Position numbers and translations under genes: made by a program
Shown: piece after piece, positions 57,988 to 61,503 of the stretch
Layout: each line of letters starts with the position of its first letter
Numbering within the stretch: position 1 is the stretch's first letter
Assembly (NCBI GenBank): GCA_044356725.1
Contig: JBIKVS010000006.1
Span: 1-61,503, forward strand
DNA: 61,503 nucleotides
Origin: Minisyncoccia bacterium
Lineage (GTDB): Bacteria; Patescibacteriota; Minisyncoccia; SW-4-49-11
Direction: 5' to 3'
The notes under the pieces: model-generated
Seen by the model: the letters and a program-made list of their open reading frames with translations, nothing else
Databases searched by the model: none
Told to the model about the DNA's origin: nothing

Positions 57988-59781
57988 CTAATGTTTCAAA
58001 ACCTCTAAATAAACCTCCTTAGGAATATGAATACGAGCAGTATCACGCATTCTCTTTTTACCTTCTTTCTGTTTTTTTAACAATTTATCCTTACGAGTTC
58101 TATCTCCACCATATAATTTCGCTGTCACATCTTTTCTAAAAGCAGAAAGTGTTTCTCTCGCCACAATTGTACCACCTATAGTTGCCTGTAGAGCCACTGC
58201 ATACTGTTGTCTTGGCAGAGATTGCTTCAATTTATGCACAATTCGCTTACCTTCATCATGAGCTTCATCTTTATATACAATATGGGACAAAGCCTCCTGA
58301 GTCTCGCCTGCCACCATTATATCTAATTTGACTAGATTAGCCTCTTGAGGAGGTAGTGGATAATAGTTAACCGAGGCATATCCTGAAGTAATACTTTTAA
58401 GTACATCATAAAAATCCACAATAACCTTAGCTAGTGGTATATGATACTCGACAATAGCTCTATCCTCTCCAATATATTTAGTATTAATAAATTGTCCTCG
58501 TCTTTTTTGTAATAAATCCATTACTGAGCCAATATAATCTTTAGGTGTCATTATCTCTAACCTCACATAAGGCTCTAGGATTCTAGCTAACTTGGTATTG
58601 TCAGGAAAATCAGTTGCGGAATAAATAGTATAAGTGTCCCCATTAGTCTGCTCCACTATATAGGCAACAGACGGAGTGCTGATAATCAAATCCAGATCAT
58701 ATTCTCGCCTTAATCTCTCGGTAATAATATCTAAATGCAACATTCCTAAAAATCCACATCTGAACCCCTTACCTAGAGCTTCTTTAGACTCAGGTTCAAA
58801 CACAAGGGAGGAATCAGATAGCTTGAGCTTATTCAGAGCATCTCTAAGTATAGGATATTCCTCGGTACTCGCAACAAAAATACTAGCGTAAACAACCGGT
58901 ACTGGCTCCATATACTCAGCTAATGGAGCTAAATCTTGACTAGCTGGAAATTTTATAATAGTATCTCCCACACGGACATTTTCTACATTTTTTAGCCCAG
59001 TGGCAATATATCCTATCATACCAGCAGAGAGAGTATCTAATTTGGTCATCTGAGGAGTGAACACACCTAATTCTAAAACTTGAGCTTCTTGTTTTTTGGC
59101 AAGCATCTTGATACTATCCGCTGTTGAAATATTCCCATCTACAACTCTAATATGAGCAATAACACCTTTATAAGAATCAAAGGCGGAATCAAAGATTAAA
59201 GCCCTAAAATTATCTCCCTCGATTGAGTTAGTAGTTGGAGCTGGGACTTCCGCAATCACTCTCTCTAATAAAGCTGGAACTCCCTGTCCAGTTTTACCAG
59301 AAATCTCCAGAATTTCAGACTCTTCCACTCCTAGCAGTTCACAAATCTCTTGCTTGACTTCAGTCACTCTAGCATGAGGTAAATCTACTTTATTGACAGC
59401 AGGTATAATGACCAAATCCTGTTCAATAGCTAGATAAACATTAGCAATAGTCTGAGCCTGTATACCTTGAGTAGCATCTACTAGAAGAATAGCCCCCTCT
59501 ACAGCCGCAAGACTTCTCGAGACCTCATAGCTAAAGTCCACATGCCCAGGAGTATCGATTAAATTCAAAATATATTCTTGGTTTTGATAATTATATTTCA
59601 CCCTAACTGGTTGCATCTTAATAGTAATCCCTCGCTCTCGCTCTAATTCCATAGAGTCAAGCAATTGCTCTTTCATCTTCCGCTTCTCTACAGTTTGAGT
59701 CAATTCCAAAATACGGTCAGACAAAGTAGACTTACCATGATCAATGTGAGCAATAATACTAAAGTTTCGAATATTTTGCAT
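57988..59781 (-). CDS. lepA: Elongation factor 4 (LepA)
   Basis: IRNFSIIAHIDHGKST, DTPGHVDF, NKVD, and the LepA-specific C-terminal domain. Confidence 0.95.
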   Translation of the reverse strand: MQNIRNFSIIAHIDHGKSTLSDRILELTQTVEKRKMKEQLLDSMELERERGITIKMQPVRVKYNYQNQEYILNLIDTPGHVDFSYEVSRSLAAVEGAILLVDATQGIQAQTIANVYLAIEQDLVIIPAVNKVDLPHARVTEVKQEICELLGVEESEILEISGKTGQGVPALLERVIAEVPAPTTNSIEGDNFRALIFDSAFDSYKGVIAHIRVVDGNISTADSIKMLAKKQEAQVLELGVFTPQMTKLDTLSAGMIGYIATGLKNVENVRVGDTIIKFPASQDLAPLAEYMEPVPVVYASIFVASTEEYPILRDALNKLKLSDSSLVFEPESKEALGKGFRCGFLGMLHLDIITERLRREYDLDLIISTPSVAYIVEQTNGDTYTIYSATDFPDNTKLARILEPYVRLEIMTPKDYIGSVMDLLQKRRGQFINTKYIGEDRAIVEYHIPLAKVIVDFYDVLKSITSGYASVNYYPLPPQEANLVKLDIMVAGETQEALSHIVYKDEAHDEGKRIVHKLKQSLPRQQYAVALQATIGGTIVARETLSAFRKDVTAKLYGGDRTRKDKLLKKQKEGKKRMRDTARIHIPKEVYLEVLKH

Positions 59782-59831
59782 ATAAGCTATATTATAGACG
59801 AAATTAGGATATTTTACAAATTAATTATAAA

Positions 59832-60121
59832 TGATGTATTATGAGTTGTGAATTTAGTAGGGTCGACCTTTCAGTCGCCTGTTTTTGTCCTCCTTTCTAC
59901 CTACGGCAGATAAATGGAGGAGGTGGCACGCAGTGCCGGTGGTGGATATTAAGTTTAATATTATTACAAGTAAGAGTTTATTTTAGTATTTTAAAGTCTG
60001 TCCTCCCTCCCCCTTCGGGTACTCCCTCCAACTACCTACGGCAGTTAAAAAGGGAGACAATATAAGTACAGGCGACTTGCAGGTTGTCCCTACAAACTGG
60101 AGGGATAAACTCCTCCGCTAC
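59832..60121. repeat. G+C-rich mosaic repeat locus R6 (heptamers, B arm, module D with 19-nt insertion, AT-rich spacer, modules C, F, G)
   Basis: gtagggtcgacctttcagtcgcc 59858-59880. Module D 59886-59945 with inserted ctacctacggcagataaat (59897-59915). 60016-60059 matches module C. 60065-60121 matches 17153-17183 and 17043-17075. Confidence 0.85.
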
Positions 60122-60220
60122 CAATATAATGTCGGCAGGGCGCTGACTCTACGAATGACAAATGACTGAAATAACTGGCTCCCGGACTTGTCTACCGTAG
60201 GTAGAGGAGCCAGGTGCCCC

Positions 60221-61503
60221 TCAGCGAAGGACACAACGGAAACCAACAGTAGTAAACGAATTGGAAGGAGTATTAGATAGACGCAGAGCAAAGACCCCTG
60301 CAATAGATGTATCACTCCAATGACCACCACGGAGGAAGGCGAAAGGGCCTCCTGTTAAACCTCCTGCATAGTATTGCCCTGTATTTTGGGTGCTATTCCA
60401 ACTAGTATTACTTGGGCGGGTTAGGTCATAACTTAGGGTTCCAAAGTTGCTTATTGCTGTCCATTGTTGCCATAAGCTTCCTGAGCTACTATTTGGTTTG
60501 TTTTGTCCTTGTATGGTATCACTTGTCCATTCCCAGACATTTCCACCTAAGTCCCAGATTGTCTCTCCATTACTTAAGGTATGGGTTCTTCTCTCTATGC
60601 TTGGGGATACATTGCCCGTCCCAAAGTATGGATCATTATCTGTACTTGCTGCTAGGGCAATACTAGGATTATTATCGCTATGTCCTCTCCATAAGCCTCC
60701 ACTTCCTACTGTTCCTCCTGTCCAGTTTGTTCCTTGTCCTTCTATATTTCTTGCTATGGTCATCCATTCATTGTTATTGATTAGTCCATACCCTGCTCCG
60801 TTTAGACTACAGGCTGTGATTGCATTTGTTTGGCTTATATTTACTGTAGGAAATCCTGTTGCTGCGGTTGTGGCTGCTACTGTTGCTGAGCCTGTCTTTG
60901 CTTCATATTTCATTACACAGAAATCGTTGGTGCCATACATACTGTTTCTAGGTACTGCTATATAGCCGGTGGGACAGCTTATTGTTGTGCTTGGTCTGTC
61001 TATATAGGTCTGTGTCCCTGCATTATTCTTATATACTAATCTATTTAAGACTAATTGTTGTGTCCCTGTTGGCACTAATGTCCCTGCTGTTATCTGGGCT
61101 TGTATTCTTTCTTCTACTCCTGGATTTACTACTATTATTTGTCCTAGCTCTGCATTGCTTGCTGTGACTCTTATTCTATTGTTCTCTTCATTTATACTTA
61201 CTCTATATTCTCCTCCTGATGGTGCTACTGGTATCCCTGCTATATAATCCGGTACTAGTACTCTTAGATCTGCTTTATTGCTACAAGTTGTTGCTCCTCC
61301 TACCTGTTCTGTTCCTGTTTGACATATGTCTTTTAATGTTGTTGTTATCCCTGCGGGATAGCTTCCTGTGTCTATTAGGTATTGTTCTATTGCTTTGTAG
61401 ATTGTATTTATATCTGCTCTTCTTTGTGCATTCCTGGCTTGTGCTATCTGTCTATTTGGGTTTACTGCTACTAGTACTATTGCCGCTAATATCCCTATCG
61501 CTG
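60221..61503 (-). CDS. Prepilin-type N-terminal helix fused to an FGE-sulfatase/SUMF1 (C-type lectin fold) domain; 5' end beyond window
   Basis: The ORF track lists only 60221-61075. The frame stays open to 61503 and reads ...IGILAAIVLVAVNPNRQIAQARNAQRRADINTIYKAIEQYLIDTGSYP (type IV pilin / T2SS pseudopilin helix). FGE-domain motifs: DFCVMKYEAK, NEWMTIARN, WEWTSD, RGGHW, VGFRC. Confidence 0.8.
   Translation of the reverse strand, partial: AIGILAAIVLVAVNPNRQIAQARNAQRRADINTIYKAIEQYLIDTGSYPAGITTTLKDICQTGTEQVGGATTCSNKADLRVLVPDYIAGIPVAPSGGEYRVSINEENNRIRVTASNAELGQIIVVNPGVEERIQAQITAGTLVPTGTQQLVLNRLVYKNNAGTQTYIDRPSTTISCPTGYIAVPRNSMYGTNDFCVMKYEAKTGSATVAATTAATGFPTVNISQTNAITACSLNGAGYGLINNNEWMTIARNIEGQGTNWTGGTVGSGGLWRGHSDNNPSIALAASTDNDPYFGTGNVSPSIERRTHTLSNGETIWDLGGNVWEWTSDTIQGQNKPNSSSGSLWQQWTAISNFGTLSYDLTRPSNTSWNSTQNTGQYYAGGLTGGPFAFLRGGHWSDTSIAGVFALRLSNTPSNSFTTVGFRCVLR
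60224..60349 (-). other. Putative DGR variable region (VR) within the FGE/C-type-lectin domain
   Basis: All scaffold codons are adenine-free. Interspersed NNT codons. Peptide LRGGHWSDTSIAGVFALRLSNTPSNSFTTVGFRCVLR. See findings. Confidence 0.6.

Follow-up and report, generated by a model that had tools for sequence, protein, structure and literature searches.

A modular type IV pilin of a CPR bacterium with a lectin-like head, a probably orphaned DGR variable region and an apparently maintained A-ending codon bias

Introduction

Modular type IV pilins are described in the main text of Raynaud et al. (2021; PMC8179133) for Streptococcus sanguinis, in which PilB carries a vWA module and PilC a lectin module; no FGE/sulfatase module was found in that main text. 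Pilus subunits are also known as targets of DGR retroelements. Bacteroides type V pili have DGR-diversified adhesins (bioRxiv 10.1101/2024.11.15.621889), and a 'GspG-type pilin' domain is listed among rare DGR target domains (PMC11661182). For CPR bacteria, Roux et al. 2021 (PMC8144416) state that DGR targets typically show neither membrane domains nor others that can be recognised. The hairpin that follows the variable region (VR) has a role in the retrohoming of the BPP-1 element (PMC3240598). In Bacillus subtilis, Rho targets are defined by T-richness together with an excess of C, and four-codon boxes favour purine-ending codons (PMC13323073).

The pilin-DGR architecture is thus already known and listed in DGR surveys, and the gene that we describe here is a further member. 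Its less ordinary part is a class-specific wobble choice that is kept across species, against the preference of highly expressed genes.

Results

A prepilin gene cut by the end of the contig

The window, meaning the whole stretch of 61,503 nucleotides that was analysed, is an entire contig (C18) of a MAG that comprises 20 contigs and is 99.3% complete; 732 ORFs were used in the genome-wide rankings. As the sequence-only reading had claimed, a minus-strand frame at 60221-61501 (426 aa) stays open up to the window edge, where the contig end cuts the pilin gene. The gene is flanked by housekeeping genes, with lepA directly downstream on the same strand after a 439-bp gap. The features discussed below are collected in Table 1.

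The 22 missing residues are supplied by both a second contig of the genome and an independent assembly. C6:95-221 matches window 61377-61503 at 100% identity and then runs into the leader MNINKKRASKG and, across the cleavage site, FTLLEILLVIAAIGILAAIVLVA. Over the junction, the JGI metagenome contig L021 (4034 nt) agrees 100% with both C6 and C18, and it encodes a 448-aa protein, P0002, which is the full-length version of the window pilin. In part of the cells, an IS30-like element would interrupt the gene at codon ~64. Both sources give the same canonical prepilin site, with Gly(-1), Phe(+1), Glu(+5) and the hydrophobic stretch of a class III signal peptide, so the cleavage motif that was to be sought upstream of the window is present.

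Table 1. Features of the pilin gene and its 3' flank, in window coordinates.
Feature	Position	Strand	Details and basis
Modular pilin coding sequence	60221..61503	-	Residues 23-448 of 448; stop 60221-60223; first 22 codons on C6:222-285
Pilin module (predicted), residues 23 to ~165	61073..61501	-	Alpha-1 helix, small beta sheet, linker; model and Foldseek
Remaining alpha-1 helix (predicted), residues 23-67	61367..61501	-	Kink N36-P37; AF2 model; hydrophobic alpha-1N begins at FTLLE on C6
C-type-lectin / FGE-sulfatase-fold ligand-binding module (predicted), residues ~166-448	60224..61072	-	Pfam PF03781 at 60230-60865; Foldseek
Gene body in 'A dialect'	60350..61501	-	152 A-ending vs 8 T-ending codons; T 17.7%, purines 63.8%
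DGR variable region (predicted)	60216..60341	-	Homologous to relatives' template repeats; passes the stop codon into GC-rich IMH-like GAGGGGC
Inverted repeat just past the VR	60175..60213	-	CTGGCTCC ... GGGAGCCAG, 22 nt between arms; sequence

Downstream of this site the protein resembles a pilin by several measures. An N_methyl domain (PF07963) is precomputed for P0002, and a family profile matches geopilin (E 1.8e-10), PulG (E 8.7e-8 over 113 positions) and PilA. The AF2 model (pLDDT 89.5) places helices at residues 14-34 and 37-67, with strands after them. When the pilin module alone was searched with Foldseek, the best 14 matches and most of the best 30 were pseudopilins or pilins, among them EpsG, GspG, PulG and PilA1, at weak E values of 0.06-0.2 and TM ~0.5. 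[quoted passage not shown]

The machinery for such a protein was found on other contigs. The prepilin peptidase PilD (Peptidase_A24) lies at C8:18639-18959, and PilB, PilT and PilC lie at C8:19926-23839, with more sets on C9 and C5. In total the genome has five T2SSE ATPases, one of them PilT-like, and two PilC genes. From family knowledge, PilD would cut the class III signal peptide between G11 and F12, and the hydrophobic alpha-1 helix with E5 would allow assembly into type IV pili via the PilB/PilC/PilT of C8.

The gene ends in a DGR variable region

Among close homologues, the last 40 residues show hypervariable positions set in a conserved scaffold. Orthologues at 72-85% identity lie beside a DGR: the L020 target has bAvd, the template repeat (TR) and RVT_1 after it, and the L019 target has bAvd and the TR. 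The L020 target's own VR is identical to its TR at 114 of 130 positions, and 15 of the 16 mismatches fall on template adenines. Counted by site, the orthologues' own VR/TR pairs differ at 15/33 A sites against 1/97 other sites in one case and at 17/32 against 2/94 in the other. The end of the window gene follows the same pattern. It differs from the L019 template at 17/32 template adenines and at 9/94 other sites (P 1e-6); over both relatives' templates, the differences are 17-18 of 32-33 A sites versus 9-11 of 94-97 non-A sites (P ~1e-6). Given these non-A differences, the relatives' templates are not the cognate template of the window VR.

The 3' end has the further parts expected of a DGR target, namely a GC-rich IMH-like motif at the end of the VR and a hairpin downstream of it. 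The motif reads GAGGGGC in the window and GAGTGGC in the relatives' templates. At the spot of the window's inverted repeat, a 9-bp stem closed by a 4-nt loop is seen in the orthologues that adjoin a DGR, and one of its pairs shows a compensatory change. On this evidence the last ~42 codons are a predicted DGR variable region. In the relatives, an Avd/RT pair would copy the template repeat into these codons, with the adenines randomised.

The genome has no detected DGR to serve this region

Neither RVT_1 nor bAvd was found in the genome by Pfam family search, and tblastn of the genome with a close Avd and RT gave a best E of only 0.42. The template repeat is likewise absent: when the genome was scanned without gaps and with mismatches at template adenines left free, nothing above chance came up. 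The closest strain, whose protein is 93% identical and whose lepA synteny is the same, also has no DGR cassette. Across the genus the RT is patchy and partly decayed, being present in 3/11 genomes, with stops in one copy. In the 90% cluster, the three shorter members P0266, P0268 and P0269 share their VR with P0002.

We considered whether the 439-bp gap before lepA holds cassette remnants; in the alignment it contains no more than the hairpin past the VR and some dispersed GC-rich repeats. Rfam found no credible family in this gap (AsrC scored 24 bits, where the gathering score is 111).

The binding tip is probably a frozen product of past diversification by a DGR that has been lost. It would be frozen because the genome is without RT, Avd and template; their absence from the assembled genome is observed, and from it we infer a true loss. 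Repeats such as TR/VR pairs and IS copies break assemblies, and a DGR cassette could sit in unassembled or unbinned DNA of this 20-contig MAG.

That caveat leads to the strongest competing reading, namely that the VR is still diversified in trans by a DGR that lies on a co-resident element or in DNA that escaped assembly. The 20 contigs do end in repeats, and the IMH-like GC-rich motif and the post-VR inverted repeat are sufficiently intact that retrohoming in trans is conceivable. Three genes in the genome carry VR-like tails with the IMH-like GAGGGGC, multiple remote DGR targets are documented (PMC5758913, PMC8144416), and the ~40 tail residues differ at 12 positions between two very close strains. 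However, four different searches of a 99.3% complete genome found no RT, Avd or TR. The three VRs also differ from one another at non-adenine, synonymous positions, which argues against recent writing from one template, and the VR is identical in all four cluster members that share the allele. The strain differences begin upstream of the VR, at codon ~279, which fits allelic recombination better than retrohoming. We therefore regard ongoing diversification in trans as unlikely and keep to a frozen tip.

The gene body has an extreme bias towards A-ending codons

We measured codon choice as fA, the A-ending share counted only in codon boxes that offer both A- and T-ending codons. The sequence-only reading had described an extreme preference for A-ending codons outside the last 42 codons, and the counts bear this out: fA is 0.95 over the first 384 codons (binomial P 3e-42), compared to 0.454 ± 0.109 over the 732 ORFs of the genome, and the last 42 codons contain 3 A-ending versus 17 T-ending codons. 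Only three other ORFs of the genome have an fA of at least 0.85, so the bias is not a common one among its genes. The T content of the gene body is the lowest of the 732 ORFs (against 31.3 ± 3.9%), its purine share ranks 4/732, and its AT skew is the strongest among all 450-nt windows of the genome. Defence-island genes are among the genome's other AT-skew outliers.

The long antisense ORFs over this gene, which had been put down to the bias, are indeed spurious. They exist because third-position T is avoided in the gene body: two of the three antisense frames have just 7-8 stops per 384 codons, while lepA has 31-57 per 597. An overlapping antisense gene was accordingly rejected as an arithmetic outcome of this avoidance. 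Two other candidate explanations were also set aside. An unstructured mRNA does not fit, as the mean folding energy of the gene body is unexceptional (rank 145/732 ORFs). A replication-strand effect does not fit either, since lepA lies on the same strand and its orthologue in L022, a near-identical strain with 1.8% synonymous codon differences, has an fA of 0.32.

The A-ending wobble choice stops exactly where DGR coding rules begin. The switch at codon 407 would follow DGR logic, with scaffold residues coded adenine-free and variable codons derived from AAT/AAC; the tail codons would be T- or C-ending and A-poor for these two reasons.

The bias appears to be a family trait rather than a sign of import or abundance

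The sequence-only reading had offered foreign origin or special expression constraints as sources of the bias. A recently acquired gene, from a phage or another lineage, would explain why this is the genome's strongest compositional outlier, why orthologues occur in differing genomic contexts, and why defence-island genes turn up among the other outliers; in addition, the lectin head has been swapped by recombination between near-identical strains. However, an fA of 0.71-0.97 is retained by orthologues and paralogues whose proteins are 50-93% identical, across many Paceibacteria-type genomes and varied contexts, next to neighbours at 0.32-0.6. A recent import is at odds with this, because an unselected one would have drifted to host codon usage at such divergence. 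The DGR RT gene adjoining an orthologue has normal usage (fA 0.42), and the window gene has housekeeping genes on its flanks. Phage origin was rejected on the IMG/VR search, which returned no close relative: the nearest viral relatives are at most 41% identical, in the lectin domain only. Foreign origin is thus not borne out, and we consider it quite improbable. By its distribution, the A-ending bias is instead a maintained trait of this gene family in Paceibacteria-type CPR bacteria.

The expression half of the suggestion survives in its general form but not as simple optimisation for high expression. Pilin proteins tend to be abundant, U34 tRNAs read A-ending codons by Watson-Crick pairing, and each of the boxes in question is served by a tRNA with a UNN anticodon in this genome, tRNA-Ile(UAU) being one. 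In NNY boxes the C share is 0.32, the value also seen in EF-Tu. However, EF-Tu (fA 0.32) and 18 ribosomal-protein genes (0.28-0.57) lean towards T-ending codons, and the short, major-type pilins code the same N-terminal peptide with T-ending codons. That the bias optimises the translation of a pilin gene expressed at very high levels is accordingly very improbable.

We give still less credence to the idea that a purine-rich, T-poor coding strand shields the transcript from Rho-dependent premature termination ('runaway transcription'). The purine rank of the gene body and the preference for purine-ending codons in B. subtilis four-codon boxes (PMC13323073) speak for it. Against it, no Rho RNA-binding domain was found in the genome, while control genomes were positive in the same search, and C is no scarcer relative to G than in the genome on average (C-G rank 334/732). 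With rho not found, we rejected Rho avoidance.

Two codon dialects distinguish long from short pilins

The family trait has a counterpart across the genus. The shared N-terminal peptide is written with A-ending codons in long modular pilins and with T-ending codons in short (major-type) pilins, and between the two classes runs of identical bases do not exceed 8 nt though 42/45 residues are identical. By this comparison, the A dialect of the gene body would be an extreme case of a genus-wide long/short pilin pattern. In the DGR-target family to which the gene belongs, the dialect spans the gene as far as the VR. Some long pilins in the genome carry the A dialect at the N-terminus only, and it is also seen in one non-pilin secreted protein (C8:3-845). 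For the other strongly biased pilin, C5:89258, only the pilin module has relatives in the genus.

Our best guess at the cause is selection on gene class. The dialect could be kept by recombinational isolation of the modular from the major pilin genes, which share a peptide, or alternatively by class-specific translation through U34 tRNAs. It is tempting to speculate that the pilins of the genus are written in two maintained synonymous dialects that selection keeps apart, through a recombination barrier or a U34-tRNA translational switch, but we hold this full proposal to be doubtful. If there were a recombination barrier, modular heads could shuffle among themselves without harming the major pilin. 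Either mechanism, if true, would mean that a paralogous gene family uses synonymous coding in a way not described before.

The lectin-like head and its place on the pilus

In Foldseek searches the C-terminal domain matched TaqVP (5vf4, E 1e-9), Mtd (1yu1), FGEs and TvpA (2y3c), with TaqVP and Mtd the best. Pfam names the domain FGE-sulfatase (residues 213-424 of the partial protein, E 4.6e-8). FGE structures (PDB 1Y1E family) have two catalytic cysteines in the C-terminal segment. Here there are no cysteines between the RGG motif and the terminal GFRC; the sole cysteine of the tail sits in the terminal GFRCVLR. Because this cysteine pair is absent, the domain is predicted to be a binding module with the C-type-lectin fold of DGR variable proteins and no FGE enzyme. 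We give practically no weight to a formylglycine-generating (sulfatase-modifying) enzyme or a type II secretion pseudopilin: the Pfam name, a weak T2SSG match and FGE structures among the fold matches point that way, but the segment that holds the catalytic cysteines in FGE has none here, the best fold matches are DGR variable proteins, the orthologues are DGR targets, and the genome has pilT and several PilB/PilC sets, typical of pilus systems.

The C-terminal module of ~280 residues would be too bulky for the filament body, and for this reason the subunit would act as an adhesin located at the pilus tip or close to it. From the architecture, a pilus-tip location and an adhesin role are most likely. 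Its ligand could be a host cell, a partner cell or a surface ligand.

Discussion

Taken together, we find it likely that the locus is explained jointly by a modular pilin with a lost-DGR tip (frozen, with RT, Avd and template lost), a codon switch set by the DGR and a maintained A dialect. Little is understood about how CPR bacteria, which live attached to other cells, pick out their partners. A pilus subunit with a retroelement-written lectin tip would be a concrete candidate for such recognition, and the orphaned copies suggest that the diversifier is often lost and specificity thereby frozen. The gene also offers a clean natural system in which to ask what, besides mutation bias and the level of expression, is able to fix synonymous sites.

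Compared to the purine bias ascribed to Rho avoidance (PMC13323073), the codon bias described here is alike in its purine-ending preference in four-codon boxes and in being tied to the gene, not the replication strand. It differs in that rho was not found in this genome, in affecting a handful of surface-protein genes and not the whole genome, and in writing the same peptide in two opposite dialects by pilin class.

The window head has a predicted fold in common with TaqVP (Thermus aquaticus, 5VF4), Mtd (Bordetella phage BPP-1, 1YU1) and TvpA (Treponema denticola, 2Y3C). Like them, it has its VR in the last ~40 residues, ending in GFRC, with an excess of differences at template adenines (here versus the relatives' templates), and the VR is followed by an IMH-like motif rich in GC and by an inverted repeat. 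Unlike them, it stands on a type IV pilin module and not on a phage fibre, lipoprotein or soluble protein, and its genome has no detected cognate RT, Avd or TR.

With the modular pilins treated in the main text of Raynaud et al. (PMC8179133), the window pilin has in common a class III signal peptide, a small pilin module and a bulky binding module, as well as the pilus tip as the expected position and adhesin as the expected role; the module here differs from theirs in having a DGR-type lectin fold with a retroelement-written tip. As in the Bacteroides type V pilus adhesins, a retroelement would have diversified the adhesive end of a pilus subunit, although in our case the subunit is a type IV pilin, the host is a CPR bacterium and the system is in a probably orphaned state. 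Finally, unlike the CPR targets surveyed in PMC8144416, this pilin family has a clear pilin anchor.

The pilin gene and its locus

The window's terminal pilin-lectin gene could be followed past the contig end. The window is contig C18 in full, and its final 127 bases (61377–61503) recur without a mismatch at positions 95–221 of C6, another contig of this genome, and the gene start lies further along C6. An independent 4034-nt JGI metagenome contig (L021) matches both contigs across the junction at 100% identity and encodes the full-length product of 448 residues (P0002). The leader MNINKKRASKG is followed by FTLLEILLVIAAIG, with Gly at −1, Phe at +1 and Glu at +5; the prepilin cleavage site, whose lack would have spoken against a pilin, was thus recovered from both C6 and L021. 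The genome itself comprises 897 kb in 20 contigs (99.3% complete by marker genes, about 33% G+C), and the protein's named relatives come from MAGs of Minisyncoccia, Parcubacteria and Paceibacteria, which places the organism among the CPR/Patescibacteria.

The first 94 bases of C6 come from the end of an IS30-type element, present in multiple copies, that adjoins the pilin gene at codon ~64; the ends of C4, C8, C11, C14 and C19 also carry its terminal sequence. Because this end is multi-copy, the assembly graph forks within the pilin gene and the contig breaks, which may reflect either an insertion in part of the population or an assembler following the repeat. Downstream, lepA follows after 439 non-coding bases, and this gap holds, at 60000–60156, short GC-rich repeat modules present in dozens of copies genome-wide. 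An Rfam match to AsrC overlapping the lepA start region (59708–59784) scored 24 bits, well short of the gathering score of 111, and is almost certainly due to chance.

Features of the pilin-lectin locus and of related loci; C5, C8, C9 and C14 are other contigs of the same genome, and G009 and G022 are other genomes
Feature	Location	Strand	Description
Pilin-lectin ORF	stop 60221–60223 to window edge	-	open frame, 426 codons
Inverted repeat after the variable region	60175–60213		22 nt separating arms
GC-rich repeat module	60064–60093		GTAGGGACAACCTGCAAGTCGCCTGTACTT
GC-rich repeat module	60131–60155		TTCGTAGAGTCAGCGCCCTGCCGAC
Prepilin peptidase, PilB, PilT, PilC	C8		one cluster
Further ATPase and platform sets	C9 and C5
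Tandem short pilins	C9:25817–26347 and C9:26487–26987		176 and 166 aa
Pilin-lectin paralogue	C5:52754–54172		similar tail
Fibre-like non-pilin paralogue	C9:23582–25585		667 aa, similar tail
Pilin with fn3 and glycine-rich modules	C5:89258–90742		495 aa, high A-ending share
Small membrane protein after the C5:89258 pilin	within C5:89258–91283		high A-ending share
Secreted repeat protein	C8:3–845		at contig end, high A-ending share
IS transposase	C14:80–1051		323 aa, HTH_38 + rve domains (IS30-type architecture)
Decayed reverse transcriptase gene (L113)	G022:C4:644–931
Decayed reverse transcriptase gene (L109/L110)	G009:C11:67–1093

A modular pilin with a binding head

The N_methyl motif is present in P0002, and a profile built from 56 family members hits geopilin (E 1.8e-10), several PilA/PilE pilins and, over 113 positions, the PulG pseudopilin (E 8.7e-8). 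In the AlphaFold model (pLDDT 89.5, pTM 0.80) the N-terminal helix spans residues 14–67, with a kink at Pro37, and leads into a small sheet; when residues 1–170 were modelled alone (pLDDT 76.5), the top 14 fold matches were mostly pseudopilins and pilins, with weak E values. Genes for a prepilin peptidase, PilB, PilC and PilT are all present in the genome. A prepilin pattern scan returned 18 matches, a few of them spurious, leaving ~15 genes with a prepilin-type N-terminus. Two tandem short pilins, whose N-terminal DNA is 90% identical and which are coded with T-ending codons, are probably the major pilins.

The C-terminal domain is FGE-sulfatase by Pfam, yet the best structural matches of the head are the variable proteins TaqVP and Mtd of diversity-generating retroelements (DGRs), followed by FGEs and TvpA. 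The FGE catalytic cysteine pair is absent from the tail, whose sole cysteine lies in the terminal GFRCVLR. The domain is therefore a binding module, not an enzyme: of the FGE/C-type-lectin assignment made in the sequence-only reading, the lectin-fold head stands and the FGE enzyme does not. The proposal that this head sits on a pilin stalk was right, and we refine it to a modular pilin, that is, a pilin module with a bulky extra domain (Raynaud et al. 2021, PMC8179133), carrying a DGR-type binding head.

The tail is a DGR variable region

Close homologues, 80–90% identical over most of the head, vary at scattered positions within the final 40 residues, around the constant scaffold RGG.W....GVF.L.L...PS.....GFRCVLR. 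Downstream of the orthologue (72% identity) at L020, a relative's locus, come bAvd, a 130-nt template repeat and an RVT_1 reverse transcriptase (RT); the L019 orthologue (83–85% identity) has the same layout as far as the contig end. The L020 variable region matches its template at 114 of 130 positions; of the 16 mismatches, 15 fall at template adenines and the other is G versus T in the GC-rich end motif. The window tail differs from the L019 and L020 templates at 17–18 of 32–33 adenine sites versus 9–11 of 94–97 others (Fisher P ~1e-6), and its non-adenine differences are mostly at synonymous third positions. Such differences would be expected if, as the alignments suggest, these templates are related but not cognate to the window tail. 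The final 42 codons constitute a DGR variable region.

Codon usage changes at codon 407

The sequence-only reading had described extreme A-ending codon usage outside the last 42 codons, and the counts bear this out. Counting only boxes with an A- as well as a T-ending codon, the first 384 codons in the window contain 152 A-ending and 8 T-ending codons, an A-ending share (fA) of 0.95, compared with 0.454 ± 0.109 across 732 genome ORFs; the last 42 contain 3 and 17. In DGRs, all template adenines are mutable, scaffold residues need A-free codons, and variable codons derive from AAT/AAC. The templates of the L019 and L020 relatives follow this coding. The A-ending bias stops at codon 407 because the tail follows these DGR rules, and the codon-switch boundary is the boundary of the variable region.

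Within the gene body, alanine is coded by GCA in 80% of cases (genome 24%) and never by GCT (genome 57%), with similar shifts for ATA (84 vs 35%), ACA (70 vs 30%) and GTA (82 vs 39%). Serine is shifted from TCN to AGY (86% vs 33% genome). Frequencies of C- and G-ending codons are about normal, and the C share in two-codon NNY boxes is doubled, from 0.17 to 0.32. T content (17.7%) is the lowest among all ORFs, purine content ranks fourth, and the effective number of codons is 32 (rank 4) vs 40.3 ± 3.8. The bias is not common in the genome: only three other ORFs reach an fA of about 0.85 or above (0.84–0.93).

The foreign origin proposed for this bias is unsupported. Five orthologues (72–93% identity) in five genomic contexts have body fA values of 0.89–0.97 with neighbours at 0.32–0.71, low-GC Paceibacteria-type homologues in GTDB genomes (46–63% identity) have 0.71–0.95 against a background of 0.34–0.51, and the closest viral relatives of the protein are distant, all of which argues against recent import. 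The A-ending bias is missing from Saccharibacteria and other distant homologues. Optimisation for high expression does not fit EF-Tu (fA 0.32) or 18 ribosomal-protein genes (0.28–0.57); a replication-strand effect does not fit lepA, which lies on the same strand and favours T-ending codons; and the gene body ranks only 145 of 732 for lack of mRNA structure. A rho gene was not found in this genome, which speaks against Rho avoidance, the model recently shown to drive purine bias in Bacillus (PMC13323073). Coding-strand purine content nevertheless averages 54.2% genome-wide. In sum, the A-ending preference of the gene body is kept among relatives and specific to the gene class.

Two codon dialects among pilins

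We compared 53 prepilin-motif matches from this and four congeneric genomes; two of these matches are not pilins. A shared peptide, GFTLLEILLVIAAIGILAAIVL.AINPN.Q, has two encodings. All short pilins (150–170 residues) use T-ending codons, their first 45 mature codons giving A/T counts of 1/17 to 8/18; among long modular pilins with the peptide, nearly all use A-ending codons, typically 15/9–25/0 and mostly 18/3 or beyond. The short pilin at C9:26487 agrees with the window gene at 42 of 45 residues but only 75% of bases, and the longest identical run between them is 8 nt; less similar modular pilins share 78–80% of bases with the window gene, with identical runs of 15–28 nt. In most modular pilins the A dialect fades past the N-terminus (fA 0.5–0.68); in the DGR-target family it runs throughout the gene body.

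Because the contrast between the dialects peaks where the proteins are the same, we favour, from these comparisons, an explanation tied to gene class. Recombinational isolation between major and modular pilin genes is one candidate; two old 5'-module lineages, each homogenised by gene conversion, could be another. Alternatively, U34 tRNAs might decode by pilin class. ARAGORN detected 38 tRNAs in the genome, including tRNA-Ile(UAU), one U34 tRNA each as the only ones for Gly and Pro, and no tRNA-Asn.

The pilin locus is a site of active recombination. Between the window strain and L022, a relative's locus, lepA has no amino-acid changes and 1.8% synonymous codon differences, while the pilin gene (L022:2565–3914) differs by 33 amino acids and in 9.6% of codons synonymously. 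All 33 changes lie from codon ~279 to the end (window 60224–60665), so the lectin head, tail included, was replaced as a block.

Fate of the retroelement

Pfam searches found neither RVT_1 nor bAvd in the genome, tblastn with a close relative's Avd and RT gave nothing better than E 0.42, and a genome scan for a template, allowing mismatches at the tail's own adenines, returned only the tail itself. No Avd or RT was called on the fetched parts of two contigs of the closest strain (93% protein identity, same murJ...lepA synteny). Three of 11 other genomes of the genus have an RT, one intact, one cut by a contig end and one with six stop codons, and four of 10 further homologue-carrying genomes have an RT or RT fragments. 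The same tail as in P0002 occurs in three shorter members of its 90% cluster, from other contigs. Some related genomes carry decayed DGR RT genes with several stops or a frameshift (Table), in keeping with the diversifier having been lost more than once in this group.

It is unlikely that the DGR cassette simply lies in unassembled DNA. Since RT, Avd and template were not found and the relatives' RTs are patchy or decayed, it seems more probable that the window pilin's binding tip is frozen, and that its DGR-type binding head has lost its diversifier.

Right after the stop codon, GAGGGGC and an inverted repeat recur in all copies. At L019:11318–11450 and L020:11408–11540, the repeat is a GC-rich stem of 9 bp around a 4-nt loop, and the two loci differ there by one compensatory base-pair change. 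The window, the C5 paralogue and the orthologous loci L022 and L025 have a longer form (~19 extra bases between the arms), and a further orthologous locus, L024, has a larger, different insert; no Avd or RT gene was called on the fetched DNA of L022 and L025, and the loci compared are few and interrelated. In phage BPP-1, the hairpin after the variable region is required for retrohoming, and the size of its loop matters (PMC3240598).
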